A stretch of 32,000 bases of DNA, from assembly GCF_000017845.1 (NCBI RefSeq), contig NC_010546.1:900001-932000 (forward strand). The letters are read 5' to 3'. The notes below the pieces were generated by a model. That model did not search any database and had not been told where the DNA came from. It saw nothing but the letters and a program-made list of their open reading frames with translations. Positions 7,395 through 25,771 of this stretch are shown piece after piece. A program made the position numbers and the translations under genes. Origin of the DNA: Crocosphaera subtropica ATCC 51142. GTDB taxonomy: Bacteria; Cyanobacteriota; Cyanobacteriia; Cyanobacteriales; Microcystaceae. Positions within the stretch are counted from its first letter, which is position 1, and each line of letters begins with the position of its first letter.

Positions 7395-8276
7395 ATGAGT
7401 CCCAAGAAATTAACCGACGACGACAAACAAGAAATTCTTAATCTTTATCGTCAAACCCCAGAAACTACATCTACCTTAGCTGACCGTTACGGGGTCAGTA
7501 GTTCTACCATTAGTCGTTTTTTGAAAAATACTCTATCCGATGTGGAGTATGAAGATTTAATTCAACAAAAACGCTTAGCCAGAACGAATAAACTTCAAAC
7601 AAACCCGGAAGTCGATTCTACTCCCCAGGCAACAAAACCGATTCTCAAAGTGAGTGAGGAAGTTCCCCCACCAGAACCTACGACCAATCAAACAGAAAAA
7701 CCTGAGACTTTATCTCCAGAATCCACCTCAAAACCGAAGCCAGTGGTTAAAAAAGAAACCCCTGTTTTACTGTCTCAACAAGAAGACGAAGAAACCGAAG
7801 AAACTGAAGAGTTGGAAGAAGTCAATGTCGTCGCCGTTGGCGAAATGCTAGGAGAAGAGTTAGAAGATAGTGATGAGGACTGGGACGATGAAGAAGATGA
7901 GGATGAGGGTGAAGAAGAAGAAGAGTACAACGACTCTTTATCCACACCAGAAGATGTTCAAGTTCTCCCCTTATCTGCGGCCACCTTCCCCAAAACTTGT
8001 TATCTAGTTATCGATCGATCAGCTGAATTAATTGCCAAACCTTTAAAAGAGTTTGCCCACCTTGGTCAAATTCCTGTCGATGAGGTACAACAAAAAACGC
8101 TACCGATTTTCGATAATCATCGGGTCGCCCGTCGTTTTTCCAATCGTTCTCAACGAGTGATTAAGATTCCTGATGGCCGCCTTCTCTACAAAACTTGTGA
8201 CTATCTACAAGCTAAAGGAATTACTCGTATTCTTATGGATGGTCAAATTTATTCCCTAGCGACTAAATCAGACTAA
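7395..8276 (+). CDS. Hypothetical protein: N-terminal HTH-like segment, long proline-rich/polyacidic linker, C-terminal globular domain
   Basis: 293 aa. TSTLADRYGVSSSTISRFLK resembles a resolvase/sigma-type HTH. Residues about 120-180 are a D/E low-complexity tract. Transcribed divergently from carA. Confidence 0.55.
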   Translation: MSPKKLTDDDKQEILNLYRQTPETTSTLADRYGVSSSTISRFLKNTLSDVEYEDLIQQKRLARTNKLQTNPEVDSTPQATKPILKVSEEVPPPEPTTNQTEKPETLSPESTSKPKPVVKKETPVLLSQQEDEETEETEELEEVNVVAVGEMLGEELEDSDEDWDDEEDEDEGEEEEEYNDSLSTPEDVQVLPLSAATFPKTCYLVIDRSAELIAKPLKEFAHLGQIPVDEVQQKTLPIFDNHRVARRFSNRSQRVIKIPDGRLLYKTCDYLQAKGITRILMDGQIYSLATKSD

Positions 8277-9772: not shown

Positions 9773-10870
9773 TTATTTGTTTTTTTGTTGATTTTTAGCT
9801 TGTTCGATGGCTATTTCTTTCATCGCTTCAAAGGAATTTCGATTTGAACTCCCTTCAATGGCTTTAACCGCTAAATCTTGAACTTGTTTTAGGGAAGCTT
9901 CTAACTGTTGAGAGAGTTTTTGCTGACGAATTTCTTGATTATTGATGGTTTCTTCTAAAGCAACAATTCTTAGTTCATAATTGTGTTTTTCTCCTTCTAT
10001 TTCTTTACTTCGTAAGTCCGATTTTATTTTAGCTTGATAGGTTCCAATTCCCTTTCCTTCTTCTTTAGCCTGTTTGATTTTCTGTTCTAATTCCTCTTGT
10101 AATTGTTCAAGTTTAGCTTTTGTTTCTTGCTGTTCTTTTTCTTGTTGACTAATGTTTTCTTCCTTTTCTTGCCATTGTTTTTCTTGGGTTTCTCTAGTCT
10201 CTTTTAGTTCTTGATATAACCCTTGTTTTTCTGCTTGATATTGTTCTTCATCCAGTTGTCTTTCTAATTTTACATTATAAGTATATTGTTCTTGTTCTCG
10301 TTTCTTATTCGTCAAATATTCTTGTTCTCTTTCTTGGATTTCTCGATTATAATTTTGTTTTTCTTTGTGCCAATTTTTTTGTAATTCTTCTAATTCTTTA
10401 GCTAGGGTATCTTGTTGTTTGCTTAATTCTTCTTCGTTAGTTTTTGAGGTGGTTTGATACTCTTCAATTAGGTTAGATAGAGTCTCATCTTCGATGGTTT
10501 CAATATTATGTAATTCTTCTAATTCTGCTAACTCTTCTGTCGCAATTTTATTGAGTTCTGCTAGTAAGGAAGCTTCAGCTATTAATTGTTCTGATAAATG
10601 GCTAACGGCACTACCAAAATTATTTTGTACTTTTTCTAAACTTTCAATGGTTAAAGTAATGTTATTATTGAACAGGGTGTTTGCTGCTGTCATGACTTTT
10701 TTCTTGGCAGAATTAGAATCTTGATTATTCGATGTAATAGTTTGAGTGACTTGTGGTGTTTTTGTCAGTTGCTTAACTTGACTTTCTAATGCTGATTTTT
10801 CCTGCATTAGTTCTTCATAAGCCTCTAAAATCTGGGATTTTGTGTTTTTAGAATTTATTTTTTGTGCCAT
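9773..10870 (-). CDS. Coiled-coil protein B (paralog of the upstream gene), function unknown
   Basis: 365 aa, very E/K/Q-rich with heptad-like periodicity. No TM segment, signal peptide or catalytic motif. AAGAGGTG lies 7 nt before the ATG, 34 nt after the stop of the upstream gene. Confidence 0.7.
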   Translation of the reverse strand: MAQKINSKNTKSQILEAYEELMQEKSALESQVKQLTKTPQVTQTITSNNQDSNSAKKKVMTAANTLFNNNITLTIESLEKVQNNFGSAVSHLSEQLIAEASLLAELNKIATEELAELEELHNIETIEDETLSNLIEEYQTTSKTNEEELSKQQDTLAKELEELQKNWHKEKQNYNREIQEREQEYLTNKKREQEQYTYNVKLERQLDEEQYQAEKQGLYQELKETRETQEKQWQEKEENISQQEKEQQETKAKLEQLQEELEQKIKQAKEEGKGIGTYQAKIKSDLRSKEIEGEKHNYELRIVALEETINNQEIRQQKLSQQLEASLKQVQDLAVKAIEGSSNRNSFEAMKEIAIEQAKNQQKNK

Positions 10871-10904
10871 TTATACACCTCTTGATTTGATGATTTAGGT
10901 TAGT

Positions 10905-11882
10905 TTAGTTGTTGCCTTGAAATGCTCTTAAAGCTAAGTTTTGCGCTTGGGTAGTTGTATTTTGCAGTTGGGTATTTAATTCTGCTATTTGTTCATTATT
11001 TTGAATAATTTTTGTTTCTAAAGCTTGGATTTTAAATTCATATCCTTGCTTATTTAATTCCCATTCTTTTTCGAGTAAATCGATTTTAATTTGGGCTTCT
11101 CTATCAGCTGATTTAATAGCTTCTCCTTTAGCTTTATTGTATTCTTCTTTGATTTTTGCCTCTAATTGATCTATTTTTTGCTTGTTAGCTTCAAATTCTT
11201 CTCCATTTTGAGCTAAGATAGCTTCTCGTTCTTTCCAGGCTTTTTCTTTTGCTGTATTTAACAATTGTATTTCTCTTTCTTGTTGCCGTTTTTTCTCTTC
11301 GTATTCATCCTGTTCTATTTTGCGGATTTTTTGAATTTCATATTGATAATTAGCTGCTTCTTGTTCCCTTTGTTTATTGATTAACTCCGTTTCTTCTTCT
11401 ATTCTTGCGCTAAATTCTTCCGCTTCTTTTTCCCAAGTATTCCTTGTTTTCTCTTGTTCTTTTTCTAAGCATTCTTTTTGTTGATTACTTTCTTCTTGTA
11501 ATCGTCTTAGTTTCTCTTGATATTCCTGTCTTAAAATATAAAGGGCATCAGAAACTAATCTCACTTGACGTAGTTTTTGCAGTTGTTCTTGTTTAACGGT
11601 AATGGCTTTTTTAAGGTCATCTAATTTAGTAGATTCTGTAGTTAAATTTCGGGATAAATCTTGGATAATTTGTCCGAAGTCTAATTGCAGAGAAGCCATA
11701 CTATTAACAATGTTATTAACGGTATATTCGCCAGCTTTCTCTAATAATTGTTTATTTTTTTCCTTTTCTAGTTCTTCCTCTTTGGTGATGACACTAGATT
11801 CTTGTTGATGATATTTGCCTAAGAATTGCGTAAAATTAGACAAAATTTGCTCTTTAGTCCCTGTTAAAGTTTCTTGTACCAT
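10905..11882 (-). CDS. Coiled-coil protein A (paralog of the downstream gene), function unknown
   Basis: 325 aa, E/K/Q-rich. Shares ordered blocks with protein B, listed in the 9773-13029 finding. AGGAAA precedes the ATG. Confidence 0.7.
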   Translation of the reverse strand: MVQETLTGTKEQILSNFTQFLGKYHQQESSVITKEEELEKEKNKQLLEKAGEYTVNNIVNSMASLQLDFGQIIQDLSRNLTTESTKLDDLKKAITVKQEQLQKLRQVRLVSDALYILRQEYQEKLRRLQEESNQQKECLEKEQEKTRNTWEKEAEEFSARIEEETELINKQREQEAANYQYEIQKIRKIEQDEYEEKKRQQEREIQLLNTAKEKAWKEREAILAQNGEEFEANKQKIDQLEAKIKEEYNKAKGEAIKSADREAQIKIDLLEKEWELNKQGYEFKIQALETKIIQNNEQIAELNTQLQNTTTQAQNLALRAFQGNN

Positions 11883-11970
11883 AATTGTAATTTTCCTGGT
11901 GTTAAATGCTCAAAAATTGGGCAACCTTTCTGATAAGGTTTCCTTTGACTTTCTGGAATTCCCTGGTAAG

Positions 11971-12023
11971 TTGATTTTTTAGTCAACACTGTTATGGTAA
12001 GCTAATATTGATTTTTTAGTCAA
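11971..12023. promoter_or_regulatory. Two identical 16-bp palindromic boxes TTGATTTTTTAGTCAA in the divergent control region (putative XRE operators overlapping back-to-back promoters)
   Basis: Exact copies at 11971-11986 and 12008-12023, 37 bp start to start. Each has inverted TTGA/TCAA ends. The reverse complement supplies TTGACT (-35-like) for the leftward operon. TAATAT (12003-12008) is a -10-like hexamer for the rightward XRE gene. Confidence 0.5.
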
Positions 12024-12057
12024 GTGTCATTGAGAAAAAAGTTACCCAGGAGAAACC

Positions 12058-12405
12058 GTGAGTCAAAGTTTTGGTCAAGTGATACGTCAGAGGCGCAAAA
12101 AGAAGGGATATAGTCAAAGGGAATTAGCCCAGAAGCTAGAAATAGATTTTACTTACTTATCCAAGTTAGAGAATGATAGGGCTAAATATTCCCCAAAAGA
12201 AGACATTATTAGAGATTTAGCAGCTTATCTAGACTTAGACGCAGACGAGTTAATTTTTCTAGCAGGGAAACTCCCGGAAGACAATGAGGACTTTTTGCGA
12301 GAACACTATAAAAGTATGCCCACTTTGTTTAGAAGAATGAAAGAAAATCCTAAATTTGCAGAAAAAATATTTAATCAAGCTATCCAAGAAGATACAGAGG
12401 GGTAA
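12058..12405 (+). CDS. XRE-family helix-turn-helix transcriptional regulator
   Basis: 115 aa, GTG start with AGGAG 5 nt upstream. Contains IRQRRKKKGYSQRELAQKLEIDFTYLSKLENDR (HTH_3-type), then ...DLDADELIFLAGKLPED. Confidence 0.85.
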   Translation: MSQSFGQVIRQRRKKKGYSQRELAQKLEIDFTYLSKLENDRAKYSPKEDIIRDLAAYLDLDADELIFLAGKLPEDNEDFLREHYKSMPTLFRRMKENPKFAEKIFNQAIQEDTEG

Positions 12406-12408
12406 ACC

Positions 12409-13029
12409 ATGCAAATATTTAAGCCATTTCGTTTCATTCCGAAAAAAAGGATTGAAAAGCAAGCAACTAGCATTTTGCAGCAGATGCAACAGACACCTAG
12501 CTATGAGTTAAAATTTCCCCTAGATGCTAGTCGAGTGGCAGAATTTTTAGGGTTAGACGTGGTTTGGGATAGTATTCCCAATGACGAGAAAGGAATGATT
12601 GCTGCGAGAATTTTACCCTTAGAAAAGTTAATTGAAATTAATGAATTGATTCCAGAATTAAAGGGAGGGTTTGGAGAATCTACCATTGCCCATGAAATCG
12701 GACATTGGGTATTACATATTGATCAAAATACGGTTGAAAACTGTTTATCAACCGATATAAATATCGTGAAAGTTGACCCCTTATTGTGTCGGAATGAAGT
12801 TAACTTAAGTGGCATTGAGTGGCAAGCACAATATTTTGCTACTTGCTTATTAATGCCTCGTTTTAAATTAAAAGAAATTTGTTACAATCGGAATTTACAA
12901 CAATGGAGAGAATTATATAGTATTGCTGAAGAATTTGGGGTGACTATTTCTAATTTAGTTCATCGATTAAAAGATTTAGAATGGATTGAATTAAAAGAAA
13001 ATTCTCGTAAAATTGAAATTAGAAAATAG
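12409..13029 (+). CDS. ImmA/IrrE-family (COG2856, M78-like) zinc metallopeptidase
   Basis: 206 aa. HExxH motif AHEIGHWVLH, and the downstream block EWQAQYFATCLLMP is typical of the family. The start is 3 nt after the XRE stop, consistent with translational coupling. Confidence 0.85.
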   Translation: MQIFKPFRFIPKKRIEKQATSILQQMQQTPSYELKFPLDASRVAEFLGLDVVWDSIPNDEKGMIAARILPLEKLIEINELIPELKGGFGESTIAHEIGHWVLHIDQNTVENCLSTDINIVKVDPLLCRNEVNLSGIEWQAQYFATCLLMPRFKLKEICYNRNLQQWRELYSIAEEFGVTISNLVHRLKDLEWIELKENSRKIEIRK

Positions 13030-15395: not shown

Positions 15396-18300
15396 TTAAG
15401 CAAAGACAAAATTGTTACTGTTCAAATCCAAATTATTACTATCTTTAACGATAGCCACTAATTCGTCTTGCATACCAGCAACTTTGAGGAAGATACCCTG
15501 ATCATTACTTCCTGAAGGAGACGCACCGATTAAGTAATCATTGGCAGTTCCGTGTAATTGAATGATATCTTGAGAAGCATCAAATCCAGAGATTTCTAGA
15601 TAATCTTGTTGTCCGTAGGAATCATAGAATGATTCGGTTGCATCCCCTACCACAAAGCTATCTTCTCCTGCGGTTCCCAATTGCTGCTTCATTAATCCCA
15701 GTAACGCATCAGCATTAGCCGATCCAGTTAAGGTTCCCGTTCCCTCAAAGGCAAAGAAATTGACACTTTCGGTGGTGTGGTTGATTTCATCATCCTTACT
15801 GGTATCTTCTTCGATCATGATTTCCACTTGTCCATTGCTCAAATTTTGATATCTTAAACCTGAAGAATCTGGACCGTCATAACTAGCAATATTGCCTAGA
15901 AATTGAGGGGTTGTGTTAAAGATGTTACCAAAATCAAGGGTATGCCAGTTATGGGTAACATGGTCGCCAGTATTTCCAGCAATAAAGGTATTTCCATCCC
16001 AATTTCCTTGTCCTGGAGAGATGGCTAACCAAGCAATGGTTTCTGCACCACGTCCATTATTAAGATAAGCTTCTTCTGCTTCTAGGGCAACTTGAAATCC
16101 ATTATTCGTTGTATTATTTTGACGGGTTCGGACAAAGGTGGCATCGTTATCGGTTTGAACTTGGGTTAAAACAATGGGAGTATCCGTAAAATCATGATTA
16201 AAGGTGATATTATGCCAATCTGATCTGGTTGTGGCATTCGTGGTAACTGTACCGACTTCGATAATAGTACCATCAGACAATTCCCAAACCCCTTGTTCTA
16301 GGACTAGGAAACTAAACGTCTCTGTAGTGTGGTTGCCACTGTGGGTATTGCCCTTAATTAAAGTGGTTTCTTGAACTTGGACTGAAAAGCGATCGCTTTG
16401 AATATCAGTAATTCTGACAATGGAAGGATCAGGACCATCGTAGGATAAGGGCCCGGCAAAGATAACCGGGTTGATGAAGTTGTGATCAAGAATGATCGTT
16501 TGACTGTCATGGGTTAAATCGTTAATTTGACCCATGTGAGCAATGATCTGATTGTTGGTTATGGGGTCAGGATCGGTATGAGGATCGGTACTGGGATCGA
16601 GATTAGTTGATCCCGTTAAAGTTCCTATTTTGTCAATGGCAAAGAAATTAACAACTTCGGTGGTATGGTCCGTTTCATTATCCTTACTGGTATCTTCTTC
16701 GATCATGATTTGTACCTGTCCATTGCTCAGATTTTGATATCTTAAACCTGAAGAATCTGGACCGTCATAACTAGCAATATTGCCTAGGAATTGAGGGGTT
16801 GTGCTAAAGGTATTACCAAAATCAAGGGTATGCCAGTTATGGGTAACATGGTCACCAGTATTTCCAGCAATAAAGGTATTTCCATCCCAATTTCCTTGTC
16901 CTGGAGAGATGGCTAACCAAGCAATGGTTTCTGCACCACGTCCATTATTAAGATAAGCTTCTTCTGCTTCTAGGGCAACTTGAAAGCCATTATTCGTGGT
17001 GTGATTTTGACGGGTTCGGACAAAAGTAGCATCGTTATCGGTTTGAACTTGGGTTAAAACAATGGGTGTATCCGTAAAATCATGATTAAAGGTGATATTG
17101 TGCCAATTGGAACGAGTGGTAGCATCGGTGGTAACACTACCCACTTCGATAATTGTGCCATCAGATAGTTGCCAAACCCCCTGTTCAACTACGAAAAAAC
17201 TAAAAGTTTCTGTCGTATGGGAACCACTGTGAGTTTTTTGGTTAATTAAAGTGGTTTCTTGAACTTGGACTGAAAAGCGATCGCCTTGAATATCGGTAAT
17301 TCTGACAATGGAAGGATCGCCACCATTACGAGATAAGGGTTGAGCAAAGATAACGGGGTTAATGAAATTATAATCGAGAAGAATCGTTTGACTGTTATGG
17401 TCTAAATTGGTAATTCGACCCATTTGAGCGATGATCTGATTGTCAGTTACGGGATCAGGATCGGTATTAGGGTCAGTATTGGGATCAACAGTTGGTTCTA
17501 TATCACTGTAAAGAATTTGGATTTGTTGATTGGGATCAGCGTAATAATTCACTAACTCAATAGAACCATTACTACCAAAATTTAAAATCAGGTTTTGACC
17601 ACTTTGGGTTTGGGTGACTTCATTGGAGGCATAATCTAGTTTGAGGATATCTTCATTGCTTCCATAATAGATTTTATCGTGACCGGTGAAGCGATCGCTG
17701 AGATAGCCACTAATCTCATTGGCAACATTGTTGAGATAAATTGTGTCATTACTACTAGAGTTAATCACATTTTCTACATCAAAACCGTAAGACACTGCAG
17801 TAGAATAATCGGTTGTACTACTGAAAGTTTTACTCAGCAGTCCTCCTTGTCTTAGATCAAGATGAAATCCACTACTTTGAGCATTTAAACCCGAAAAATC
17901 TAAAGTATCAATGCCATCAGAGTCCCAGAGGGTTTGTTTGGTTCGATTGGACGTTTCTACAAGAGAAACCCCATTAACCGTGACTTGATCGATATAATTC
18001 CCAAAAACATAGGTAGTATCTCCAGCATTATGGGTTTTAGCCCCATATAAATGCTGTAAGGCCGCAATATCGAGTGGCATAAAAGTAGCTGCGGAATTCC
18101 CAGTAAAATTATAGGTCATCACTGAGTTATCCGTGTTATCTAACTGTGCAGATAAAGGGGTTCCACTATGAGTATGGGCTAATCCTAGAGCATGACCTAG
18201 TTCATGAACTAAAGTCATGTAACCATGTTTTCCAGGATCGTGTTGGAAACCATTGGTATCTCCATAGCGATCATAATTAGAGTTTAAATGAACATCCCCA

Positions 18301-18827
18301 GCAACTTTTGAATAGGGACTGGTGGGATAATAAGCATAAGCATAATTGGGATTGTTAGAATCTTGAATACGAATGTCACCATAGGTGTCTTTATTAATTT
18401 CATCAACTTCAACAAAATCAACATCAATAACGTTTTCTAACCAAGCAAAAATTTCTCTATAATTGATTTTAACGGCGTTACTAACTTCTTTAACTCCTGA
18501 TTCTGATCCATAATAGGAGTTAGTAAAATCATCATCTTCATAAAAACTATAGGTAATCACTTTATCTGAACTAAGGTTCCATTGATAACCAGATAAAACC
18601 CCCTCAATCGGTGGAGAAATTGCTTCAGAATCAGAAGAACTAGAGGGATTTTCACTGGTGGTATTATTAGCAGTCTCATTAGTGTTTTGGGTTTCAGTGA
18701 GATGACAAGAAGGACAGTCACATTTAATATTATTAACCCACAGGCTATGTTGATTATCTTGATTAGAACCCCTATTTTGTTGTGATAATACCTGTGTTGT
18801 TAAATCTTGATTTAATAACTTATTCAT
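15396..18827 (-). CDS. Large secreted serralysin-like (metzincin, M10B-type) zinc metalloprotease with two 296-aa tandem modules and an RTX-like C-terminal secretion region
   Basis: 1143 aa. HELGHALGLAHTH zinc site, Met-turn SVMTY, DIAALQHLYGA, DTLDFSG. No N-terminal signal peptide. The C-terminus GTAGEDSFVVGD...DIIQLHG...DELVAIV...NNFVFA resembles cyanobacterial T1SS substrates. Confidence 0.85.
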   Translation of the reverse strand: MNKLLNQDLTTQVLSQQNRGSNQDNQHSLWVNNIKCDCPSCHLTETQNTNETANNTTSENPSSSSDSEAISPPIEGVLSGYQWNLSSDKVITYSFYEDDDFTNSYYGSESGVKEVSNAVKINYREIFAWLENVIDVDFVEVDEINKDTYGDIRIQDSNNPNYAYAYYPTSPYSKVAGDVHLNSNYDRYGDTNGFQHDPGKHGYMTLVHELGHALGLAHTHSGTPLSAQLDNTDNSVMTYNFTGNSAATFMPLDIAALQHLYGAKTHNAGDTTYVFGNYIDQVTVNGVSLVETSNRTKQTLWDSDGIDTLDFSGLNAQSSGFHLDLRQGGLLSKTFSSTTDYSTAVSYGFDVENVINSSSNDTIYLNNVANEISGYLSDRFTGHDKIYYGSNEDILKLDYASNEVTQTQSGQNLILNFGSNGSIELVNYYADPNQQIQILYSDIEPTVDPNTDPNTDPDPVTDNQIIAQMGRITNLDHNSQTILLDYNFINPVIFAQPLSRNGGDPSIVRITDIQGDRFSVQVQETTLINQKTHSGSHTTETFSFFVVEQGVWQLSDGTIIEVGSVTTDATTRSNWHNITFNHDFTDTPIVLTQVQTDNDATFVRTRQNHTTNNGFQVALEAEEAYLNNGRGAETIAWLAISPGQGNWDGNTFIAGNTGDHVTHNWHTLDFGNTFSTTPQFLGNIASYDGPDSSGLRYQNLSNGQVQIMIEEDTSKDNETDHTTEVVNFFAIDKIGTLTGSTNLDPSTDPHTDPDPITNNQIIAHMGQINDLTHDSQTIILDHNFINPVIFAGPLSYDGPDPSIVRITDIQSDRFSVQVQETTLIKGNTHSGNHTTETFSFLVLEQGVWELSDGTIIEVGTVTTNATTRSDWHNITFNHDFTDTPIVLTQVQTDNDATFVRTRQNNTTNNGFQVALEAEEAYLNNGRGAETIAWLAISPGQGNWDGNTFIAGNTGDHVTHNWHTLDFGNIFNTTPQFLGNIASYDGPDSSGLRYQNLSNGQVEIMIEEDTSKDDEINHTTESVNFFAFEGTGTLTGSANADALLGLMKQQLGTAGEDSFVVGDATESFYDSYGQQDYLEISGFDASQDIIQLHGTANDYLIGASPSGSNDQGIFLKVAGMQDELVAIVKDSNNLDLNSNNFVFA
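15714..17486 (-). repeat. In-frame tandem duplication, period 888 bp (2 x 296 codons), inside the metalloprotease gene
   Basis: Register verified at several points: ATGATCTGAT at 16543 and 17431, GATCC(A/C)GTTAA at 15721 and 16609. Copies span about 15714-16598 and 16599-17486. Confidence 0.9.
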
Positions 18828-21540: not shown

Positions 21541-22236
21541 ATGGTAGAATCAGTTGCTAGAGCAAATCAATCTAATATTACCTATCCTGAAAGAGATGGA
21601 AACTCCATGTCAGATAATACAAAACAGTTTCGTTGGATAGTAGTTATCAAAGAAAACTTAGAATTATTATTTGCTGATAATCCTAACATTTTTGTAGCTG
21701 GTGATTTACTTTGGTATCCCATCAAAGGAGATAATAAGACTCGTCAAGCACCAGATGTTATGATAGTCTTCGGAAGACCAAAAGGCGATCGGGGTTCCTA
21801 TCGACAATGGGTCGAAAATAATGTCACTCCTCAAGTGGTTTTTGAGATTTTATCCCCAGGAAATCGTTTATTGGAAATGGCCAAAAAGTTCAAGTTTTAT
21901 GAACATCATGGAGTGGAAGAATATTATATTTATGACCCCGATAAAATTGATTTACAAGGGTGGTTAAGGAAGAATGGAGAGTTAACTGTTATTGAAGAAA
22001 TCGATGGTTGGGTGAGTCCCAGACTCGGCATAAAGTTTGAGTTAACGACAGAAACATTAGAGATTTTTAGACCCGATGGGGATAAGTTTTTAACCTTTGT
22101 TGAGTTGGGAAAATTGAGAGAAGCTGAAAGAAAAAGAGCCAAGGAATTACAAAAACAATTAGAACAAGAACAAGAACAAAGAAAACGATTAGAAGATAAA
22201 TTAAGAGAGTTAGGAATTGATATTAATGATGTTTAA
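21541..22236 (+). CDS. Uma2-family (DUF820) restriction-endonuclease-like protein with C-terminal coiled-coil tail
   Basis: 231 aa. PDVMIVFG....R.SY......TPQVVFEILSPGN and KF.FYE..GV.EYYIYDP are the family blocks. The tail is ERKRAKELQKQLEQEQEQRKRLEDKLRELG. Confidence 0.8.
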   Translation: MVESVARANQSNITYPERDGNSMSDNTKQFRWIVVIKENLELLFADNPNIFVAGDLLWYPIKGDNKTRQAPDVMIVFGRPKGDRGSYRQWVENNVTPQVVFEILSPGNRLLEMAKKFKFYEHHGVEEYYIYDPDKIDLQGWLRKNGELTVIEEIDGWVSPRLGIKFELTTETLEIFRPDGDKFLTFVELGKLREAERKRAKELQKQLEQEQEQRKRLEDKLRELGIDINDV

Positions 22237-25698: not shown

Positions 25699-25771
25699 CG
25701 AACACGGAGGGATTTGAACCCCCGACACCCAGGACCGGAACCTGGTGCTCTATCCACTGAGCTACGTGTCC
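25699..25771 (-). tRNA. tRNA-Arg (anticodon CCG)
   Basis: The reverse complement GGACACGTAGCTCAGTGGATAGAGCACCAGGTTCCGGTCCTGGGTGTCGGGGGTTCAAATCCCTCCGTGTTCG folds as a cloverleaf. It has a 7-bp acceptor stem, anticodon stem CCAGG/CCTGG with loop TTCCGGT, and a GGTTCAAATCC T-arm. CCA is not encoded. Confidence 0.9.

Follow-up and report, generated by a model that had tools for sequence, protein, structure and literature searches.

A probable protease-controlled repressor switch over a ZicK/ZacK-like filament operon in Crocosphaera subtropica

Introduction

Why would a unicellular cyanobacterium set two coiled-coil proteins opposite a repressor and a zinc metallopeptidase? The question is raised by four genes, cce_0906 to cce_0909, in a stretch of 32,000 nucleotides (nt) from Crocosphaera subtropica (Cyanothece) ATCC 51142, which we refer to in full as the window. 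An initial annotation had taken these genes for an undescribed stress- or phage-responsive module, in which an XRE-family repressor and an ImmA/IrrE-type peptidase would control an operon of two paralogous coiled-coil proteins. The module exists, but most of it has been described before, under two names that have not been connected: the zicK/zacK cytoskeletal genes of Anabaena and the arh radiation-response genes of Limnospira. Our analysis suggests that the locus is probably the Crocosphaera copy of a widespread cyanobacterial chromosomal module, namely a protease-controlled repressor switch placed over a two-gene operon for an intermediate-filament-like heteropolymer.

Results

The four genes and the identity of the coiled-coil pair

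The four reading frames lie exactly where the initial annotation had put them, and the spacers it described are confirmed as well. The first gene of the operon, cce_0907 (WP_009546139.1; 10905..11882, minus strand), encodes an acidic coiled-coil protein of 325 amino acids (aa), and the second, cce_0906 (WP_009546138.1; 9773..10870, minus strand), encodes another of 365 aa. They are separated by 34 nt, and each is preceded by the purine-rich ribosome-binding site that had been proposed for it, CAGGAAA before cce_0907 and AAGAGGTG before cce_0906. On the other side of a divergent control region of 175 base pairs (bp) lie the XRE-family repressor gene cce_0908 (12058..12405, plus strand; 115 aa, GTG start) and the gene for the M78 (ImmA/IrrE-type) zinc metallopeptidase, cce_0909 (12409..13029, plus strand; 206 aa), which has a purine-rich ribosome-binding site of its own, GAGGGG. 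Since cce_0909 starts 3 nt past the stop codon of the XRE gene, the two are probably co-transcribed. Searchable literature makes no mention of the locus tags cce_0906 to cce_0909.

The coiled-coil proteins are paralogs, as had been supposed from their shared sequence blocks: composition-adjusted BLASTP aligns them over their full length, with 30% identity across about 338 columns (E 1e-29). Their isoelectric points (pI) are 5.1 for Cce_0907 and 4.95 for Cce_0906, with net charges of -12 and -20, respectively. No domain from Pfam, NCBIfam or PADLOC was found in either, and a profile search of the PDB gave 0 matches for them. The AlphaFold2 (AF2) model of Cce_0907 is an almost uninterrupted helix from residue 34 to residue 321, with a mean predicted local distance difference test score (pLDDT) of 80, and a Foldseek search of the PDB with the coiled-coil model returned 0 matches.

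The claim that the pair is undescribed did not survive comparison with the literature. Both accessions are listed in a published table of ZicK/ZacK homologs, WP_009546139.1 as the ZicK and WP_009546138.1 as the ZacK of Cyanothece ATCC 51142 (Supplementary File 2, bioRxiv 10.1101/553073). ZicK and ZacK are Alr4504 and Alr4505 of Anabaena sp. PCC 7120 (also called Nostoc 7120), two neighbouring coiled-coil-rich proteins (Springstein et al., bioRxiv 10.1101/553073), the former of 327 aa and pI 5.2 and the latter of 359 aa and pI 5.5. The window pair agrees with them in size and acidic pI, has the same gene order and likewise carries no transmembrane segment or enzymatic domain; its membership in the family is taken from the published homolog table plus length and pI. 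The Anabaena proteins are strictly interdependent and form intermediate-filament-like heteropolymers both in vitro and in vivo (bioRxiv 10.1101/553073), and the guess that the window pair might build a hetero-oligomeric filament is thus correct for its orthologs. Loss of both genes yields zigzag trichomes and abolishes growth in liquid culture, and two-hybrid partners of the two proteins include MreB, SepJ, SepI and HmpF (bioRxiv 10.1101/553073).

A second set of papers describes the same orthologs in Limnospira (Arthrospira) indica PCC 8005, where the arh cluster, named as such since 2015 and including its XRE gene, consists of arhX-arhR and arhA-E (ARTHROv5_10465-10471; PMC4398503, PMC4550399, PMC8400943). 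The genes arhA-E (ARTHROv5_10467-10471) head the list of radiation-induced genes in this organism, rising 8- to 30-fold upon exposure to gamma rays, and their response is dose dependent, persists through recovery, is seen at the protein level too and does not occur under nitrogen deprivation or light/dark shifts (PMC8400943, PMC4550399, PMC4398503). The same papers proposed the divergent XRE gene arhR as the regulator of arhA-E. Comparing the first 152 residues of ArhD and of ArhE, as translated in a published supplement, with the window proteins, we found 45% identity between ArhD and Cce_0907 (E 4e-36) and 38% identity between ArhE and Cce_0906 (E 1e-24); Arthrospira proteins were not among the best 120 matches of the window proteins. 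The arhD-arhE spacer is 36 nt long, as against 34 nt in the window, and in the Limnospira cluster, as in the window, the divergent XRE gene (arhR) has another gene (arhX) behind it. Taken together, these data leave us nearly certain that cce_0907 and cce_0906 are orthologous to zicK/zacK and to arhD/arhE.

The response of the orthologs to stress is not confined to radiation. Under β-N-methylamino-L-alanine (BMAA) stress in Nostoc 7120, Alr4505 rises 20-fold and Alr4504 4.35-fold at the protein level (PMC8147232). The suggestion that the pair is stress-induced therefore holds for its orthologs, for ArhD/ArhE with gamma rays (PMC8400943, PMC4398503, PMC4550399) and for Alr4504/Alr4505 with BMAA (PMC8147232). 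A pulldown with Alr4504-GFP recovered Alr4505, RecA (7 unique peptides), DnaK2, DnaJ, a ParA-family protein and MreB, and RecA is missing from the wild-type control list (Supplementary File 3, bioRxiv 10.1101/553073). Given the radiation induction of the orthologs, the presence of RecA in the ZicK pulldown is a hint, and only that. The paper on ZicK/ZacK (bioRxiv 10.1101/553073) makes no mention of stress regulation, radiation, DNA damage, an XRE protein or other regulator, arh or Arthrospira; the arh papers make no mention of ZicK/ZacK, assign the genes no function and, beyond suggesting arhR as the regulator, describe no operator, peptidase-cleavage mechanism or link to these filament proteins. 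A homology to Deinococcus radiodurans is reported in PMC4398503.

Conservation among cyanobacteria

A scan of one genome per species yielded 80 cyanobacterial loci, which span Crocosphaera, Pleurocapsales, Spirulina, Geminocystis, Microcoleus, Planktothrix, Lyngbya and others. Counts of the second gene of the pair refer to the 75 loci with room for it, and counts of the switch genes to the 70 loci whose upstream sequence extends for 3 kb or more. A ZacK gene follows the ZicK gene in the same orientation in every one of the 75 loci; an orthologous XRE gene (56-97% identity) lies divergent from zicK in 56 of the 70, and an M78 peptidase is present in 50. Because the flanking genes (carA, mraY and an ABC ATPase) are common to the Crocosphaera loci only and differ between lineages, the four genes have been kept together against an otherwise poor synteny. 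The orthologs diverge in step with the cyanobacterial orders, at 47-91% identity.

In the filamentous Oscillatoriales, three small genes are inserted between the XRE gene and zicK to give a five-gene operon. They encode proteins of about 99 aa (ArhA), about 233 aa (ArhB) and about 122 aa (ArhC, with a conserved C-x-C...C motif), as seen at L046:6393-7944 and also in L048-L080, and Limnospira ArhA, ArhB and ArhC match them at 65%, 81% and 48% identity, respectively. ArhB, for which the 81% figure compares Limnospira with Microcoleus, has 297 database matches, all in filamentous Oscillatoriales, and no Pfam or PHROG match; its AF2 model has a mean pLDDT of 37 and is unusable. It is missing from some Oscillatoriales loci (L053, L057 and L079). 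Homologs of arhA-C occur in about 20-23 loci, in Oscillatoriales only, and tblastn found no match to arhA, arhB or arhC in the window. Like the Oscillatoriales loci with arhA-E homologs, the window has a divergent XRE gene upstream of the operon; unlike Limnospira arh, it is without arhA, arhB and arhC, and it is thus the minimal version of the arh cluster.

The divergent control region

The 175-bp region between the zicK-like gene and the XRE gene (11883..12057), whose layout is conserved across cyanobacterial orders, contains TTGATTTTTTAGTCAA in two exact 16-nt copies, at 11971-11986 and 12008-12023. The copy nearer to the XRE gene, which we call O1 (12008..12023), is a palindrome of the form TTGA-N8-TCAA that reads TTGACTAAAAAATCAA on the minus strand, and its TTGACT would serve as the -35 box of a promoter facing zicK. 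A predicted -10 hexamer, TACCAT, follows at 11994..11999 on the minus strand, so that the promoter-like match facing zicK is TTGACT-18-TACCAT. The second copy, O2 (11971..11986), is identical to O1, lies 37 nt away from it and is placed just downstream of the predicted -10, a position that is kept in 18 diverse loci. The whole 32 kb contains only 4 matches to TTGA-N8-TCAA, two of which are O1 and O2. A partial third copy of the right half of the operator, TTTTGGTCAAGT (repeat family D3), is found at 12069-12080, just inside the coding sequence of the XRE gene and 55 nt from O1.

Of the 60 loci with an XRE gene, nearly all carry the same motif, with the consensus TTGACnAAAAAATCAA, 2 to 4 times next to the start of that gene; elsewhere in the loci TTGA-N8-TCAA has a background rate of 0.044 per kb. 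When the control regions of 19 diverse loci are aligned, they display a fixed layout in which O1 provides the -35 via TTGAC, 17-18 nt separate it from a TAnnAT -10, and O2 follows about 10 nt past the -10, around the position where transcription of zicK-zacK is predicted to start. Oscillatoriales have an additional third operator site next to the XRE gene. Eight loci without an adjacent XRE gene have kept the operator as well, at 68-378 nt upstream of zicK, as would be expected if a repressor now encoded elsewhere in the genome acted directly on the pair. We regard this as strong comparative evidence that the operators are regulatory sites of the zicK-like promoter, with binding as a prediction, and consider it likely that the XRE protein represses the pair through them. 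The proposal that the pair is the regulated cargo of the XRE/M78 genes is accordingly upheld on three counts: the conserved synteny, the overlap of the operator with the promoter facing the pair and the retention of the operator where the XRE gene has moved.

The repressor and the peptidase

Both regulatory proteins are what they had been taken for. Cce_0908 matches HTH_3 (E 5e-14), with the helix-turn-helix (HTH) at residues 5-65, and its first 96 residues match the capH profile of PADLOC (1e-10); Cce_0909 matches Peptidase_M78, the IrrE N-terminal-like family, above the gathering score (E 1e-9) and the PADLOC capP profile at 1.6e-17. In searches of PDB sequences, the HTH of Cce_0908 is similar to ImmR (7t8i), and DdrO is not among the matches of the XRE protein at E <= 1e-2 (0.01); for Cce_0909 the best and sole PDB match, a weak one, is CapP (7t5t). 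The HEIGH motif and the EWQAQYFA..LLMP block from which a peptidase had been called are invariant in 52 orthologs, as are H95, E96, H99 and E137, which make up the HExxH motif and the third zinc ligand (52 of 52). Cce_0909 is probably the ortholog of ArhX, given that arhX is taken for an M78 gene because of its position next to arhR. A candidate for an unlinked ArhR/ArhX ortholog in Nostoc 7120, where no XRE gene adjoins zicK, is Alr1976/Alr1977, the products of an operon for an XRE protein (NsrX) and an IrrE-domain protease that is a target of FurC/PerR (PMC12584617).

Two features of these proteins recall the CapH/CapP pair. The cut in CapH falls at F82|R83, within helix 1 of the dimerisation domain, and in the conserved C-terminal region of the cyanobacterial repressor the residues L90-F91-R92-R93 are invariant among 57 sequences; because this LF|RR resembles the CapH site, we predict by analogy that the repressor would be cleaved at F91|R92. 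In CapP, C113 sits on an insertion between H100 and E129 and acts as an autoinhibitory "cysteine switch" that is released by binding of single-stranded DNA (ssDNA). C127 of Cce_0909, kept in 51 of the 52 orthologs, sits in the equivalent variable-length insertion between HExxH and the Glu ligand. The similarity does not extend over the whole peptidase, since the match to the capP profile reaches no further than position 151 of 242 and the Pfam match spans the M78 domain only; judged from its sequence, the 206-aa protein is without the C-terminal GAF domain of IrrE and CapP. In CapP this domain helps form the ssDNA-binding groove, so that Cce_0909 may be activated by a signal other than ssDNA bound in an interdomain groove.

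Relatives outside the cyanobacteria

Among 1.84 billion representative proteins, a profile search recovered 1823 relatives at E <= 1e-3, 229 of them at E <= 1e-30, and we looked at the genomic context of a few that are not cyanobacterial. At L085:6001-8076 and L087:6001-8153 there are pairs of ZicK-like and ZacK-like genes in the same order, whose products are 28-34% identical to the window proteins. Since such pairs occur outside the cyanobacteria without the switch, the pair is older or more mobile than the switch, and its coupling to XRE/M78 looks like a cyanobacterial arrangement. Upstream of the non-cyanobacterial homologs, a search for LexA-like or shared palindromes turned up only unrelated, locus-specific inverted repeats.

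Single-copy homologs exist in Acidobacteriota. One single-copy homolog of 340 aa (L084:6001-8149) is encoded 11 nt upstream of a gene for RmuC (DNA recombination) on a 184-kb metagenomic contig, a single instance. A complete pair is also present at L090:8001-10075 in a metagenome-assembled genome labelled "Deinococcaceae bacterium", with an upstream palindrome, ATATTATG-N7-CATAATAT, that is not the cyanobacterial operator. The contig has 49% GC and carries a gene with a PatA_N domain, which makes the label doubtful, and we claim no link to Deinococcus from it.

Other features of the window

The neighbours of the module are housekeeping genes, among them carA, mraY, an ABC ATPase gene and a gene for a pentapeptide-repeat protein, and there is no integrase or phage structural gene near the locus, as the initial annotation had stated. 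A 293-aa protein with an extremely acidic, low-complexity centre of E and D runs and no Pfam match is encoded at 7395-8276 (plus strand) and is conserved beside carA in Crocosphaera loci only. At 15396-18827 (minus strand) lies the gene for a 1143-aa protein in which an N-terminal matrixin-like (Peptidase_M10) domain is followed by two near-identical repeats within the chain, of about 300 aa apiece and each with a (D-P-x-T)n linker in front of it. Two further features are unrelated to the module: a gene for a putative Uma2-family endonuclease, which also matches the PADLOC candidate PDC-S03 (21541-22236, plus strand), and a tRNA gene (25699-25771, minus strand).

Discussion

The organisation of the locus and the behaviour of its orthologs suggest how the module might work in Crocosphaera. 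In unstressed cells, dimers of Cce_0908 (ArhR) would occupy O1 and O2 (TTGACTAAAAAATCAA) and block the promoter that leads into cce_0907-cce_0906; the two operators also lie within the repressor's own divergent promoter, so that the repressor would limit its own synthesis as well. Genotoxic or oxidative stress, such as ionising radiation in Limnospira, would then render the co-transcribed Cce_0909 active. The peptidase would inactivate the repressor, most likely through a cut at F91|R92 within the repressor's C-terminal oligomerisation region, the operon would be derepressed, and the ZicK-like Cce_0907 and the ZacK-like Cce_0906 would accumulate and co-assemble into filaments. By analogy with related switches, the balance tips slightly in favour of proteolysis as the means of inactivation, and a trigger by radiation or DNA damage in Crocosphaera is reasonably likely from what the orthologs do. 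The heteropolymer formation, the 8- to 30-fold radiation induction and the BMAA induction that this scheme draws upon are carried over from the papers on orthologs, and the part that the filaments would play in a stressed unicellular cell is conjectural.

Several observations weigh against this scheme. Transcription of zicK and zacK in Anabaena takes place in standard growth, and the double mutant has its phenotype without applied stress (bioRxiv 10.1101/553073), so expression cannot be purely stress-dependent; a common zicK-zacK transcript was, moreover, not detected in that organism (bioRxiv 10.1101/553073). The Limnospira data tables show that arhR and arhX themselves change just 1.4- to 2.8-fold. 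Nostoc 7120 has sphR and sphS upstream of the pair, not XRE/M78, while 6 of the 70 cyanobacterial loci have neither the XRE gene nor the operator and another 6 have the XRE gene but no M78 peptidase. The pairs of the L085/L087 type, found on contigs of 57-60% GC beside cbb3 oxidase genes, lack XRE/M78 and the TTGA-N8-TCAA operator. Then there are the missing GAF domain of Cce_0909 and the strong acidity of both cargo proteins, which argues against their binding or coating DNA directly. Finally, expression, binding and cleavage in Crocosphaera itself are steps that we infer. The initial annotation had held that the module would be called into question if the pair proved to be a fixed core gene pair living apart from XRE/ImmA neighbours. 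In part this is what we see, since the pair does occur without XRE/M78 in Nostoc 7120, in some other cyanobacterial loci and in non-cyanobacterial genomes; most such cyanobacterial loci nevertheless keep the operator.

Some of these facts could also describe a constitutive cytoskeletal or scaffold system that the XRE/M78 genes merely trim or autoregulate, with no meaningful stress induction in Crocosphaera. Transcription of zicK/zacK in standard medium, a deletion phenotype in shape and growth that needs no stress, and the occurrence of the pair without the switch in Nostoc 7120 and outside the cyanobacteria would all be expected of it. It has more trouble with the rise of the orthologs under stress, 8- to 30-fold in Limnospira and 4- to 20-fold at the protein level in Nostoc, and with the placement of the operators, which fall on the -35 box and start region facing zicK rather than on the XRE promoter alone and are kept where the XRE gene is gone. 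Furthermore, because Crocosphaera, unlike Anabaena, is unicellular, a role in linear trichome shape cannot apply to it. We therefore think such a constitutive system unlikely. A different doubt concerns the peptidase, which might act as an anti-repressor by binding, or might cut another substrate while some other signal acts on the XRE protein. For some XRE/IrrE-type pairs it has been proposed that oligomerisation is inhibited without cleavage (PMC12584617, discussion), and a switch without proteolysis would accommodate the six Geminocystis-type loci that keep the XRE gene and operators without an adjacent M78 gene. All four catalytic or zinc-binding residues are invariant in the 52 orthologs, and the invariant LF|RR fits the hydrophobic|Arg cleavage site mapped in CapH, which make this alternative rather improbable. 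The Geminocystis-type loci in question (L030, L032, L034, L035, L037 and L045) have three operators besides the XRE gene, and in them either the peptidase gene lies at another place or the switch operates in another manner.

The match of both regulators to the capH and capP profiles of PADLOC invites comparison with anti-phage defence, in which the coiled-coil pair would be the effector of a CapH/CapP-regulated or abortive-infection module, and the match of both coiled-coil proteins, at full length, to phrog_29668 (E 1e-15 to 1e-18), a PHROG family whose function is unannotated, might be cited in the same sense. No PADLOC model matches the cargo, there is no defence system among the neighbours (carA, mraY, the ABC ATPase and the pentapeptide-repeat protein), and relatives of the pair were found neither by tblastn in 50,697 phage records nor in a scan of IMG/VR, so that a phage origin is unsupported as well. 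The orthologs, in many orders, diverge along order lines at 47-91% identity, and those of the cargo are filament proteins with a morphological phenotype. The defence- or phage-responsive reading, including that of a defence island, is thus abandoned; we rate it as highly improbable. Least credible of all is the idea that the XRE/M78 genes are a remnant prophage or integrative and conjugative element (ICE) immunity module, or an XRE-COG2856 toxin-antitoxin-like pair, that stands beside the coiled-coil genes by accident. XRE and COG2856 pairs are indeed typical of mobile elements, and the HTH resembles those of ImmR and phage repressors, but an accident would hardly preserve the adjacency in 56 of 70 loci over many orders despite shuffled flanks, with XRE proteins that are 56-97% identical, or leave the operator with zicK where the XRE gene is absent, and no integrase or phage genes accompany the module. 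Synteny and operator data together effectively refute it.

The protease-controlled switch that we favour has counterparts in other bacteria and differs from each of them. It shares with DdrO/IrrE (PprI) of Deinococcus an XRE repressor, an M78 metallopeptidase, a palindromic operator in target promoters, a chromosomal location and, in the Limnospira orthologs, induction by ionising radiation. However, its peptidase has 206 aa and no C-terminal GAF-like domain, TTGA-N8-TCAA is not the RDRM motif of Deinococcus, and the cargo identified so far is the filament pair alone rather than DNA-repair genes. CapH/CapP provides the best profile matches of both window regulators, and the two systems have in common the divergent arrangement facing the regulated operon, the correspondence of F91-R92 with the CapH cut F82|R83 and a loop Cys like that of the CapP cysteine switch. 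Unlike CapH/CapP, the module faces no immune operon in the window, lacks the GAF domain of the ssDNA groove and is widespread in cyanobacteria with divergence at the level of orders rather than scattered. Finally, ImmR/ImmA of ICEBs1 resembles it in having a short, ImmA-sized M78 peptidase directly after an XRE repressor with a similar HTH (7t8i), whereas the window module lies off mobile elements and has no integrase or excision genes.

For the window alone this is a modest result, an ortholog of a cluster that already has a name. As far as the searchable literature goes, what had not been reported is the equation of ZicK/ZacK with ArhD/ArhE and its link to the XRE/M78 switch, the conserved architecture of operator and promoter, the peptidase as the likely derepressing device, and the predicted cleavage site and cysteine-switch residue. 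Three literatures, on the ZicK/ZacK cytoskeleton, on arh radiation resistance and on the DdrO/IrrE and CapH/CapP switches, thus turn out to bear on one module without citing one another. Joining them offers testable answers to two questions: what controls the arh genes, which rank first in every irradiation data set from Limnospira, and why unicellular cyanobacteria retain "trichome-shape" proteins.

One extension, which we put forward tentatively and as falling a little short of probable, is that ZicK/ZacK filaments, instead of serving mainly to shape multicellular forms, are the output of a widespread cyanobacterial genotoxic-stress regulon that is LexA-independent and DdrO/IrrE-like, composed of ArhR, ArhX and TTGA-N8-TCAA. 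The LexA/SOS paradigm is unclear in cyanobacteria, and with a defined operator and a predicted cleavage site at hand, the full regulon could be mapped and the cyanobacterial response to DNA damage and oxidative stress probed. If this proposal is correct, cyanobacteria would gain their first regulon attributed to an XRE/M78 switch, and for the first time such a switch would be seen to drive the assembly of an intermediate-filament-like heteropolymer, perhaps one that braces the envelope or organises repair in damaged cells.

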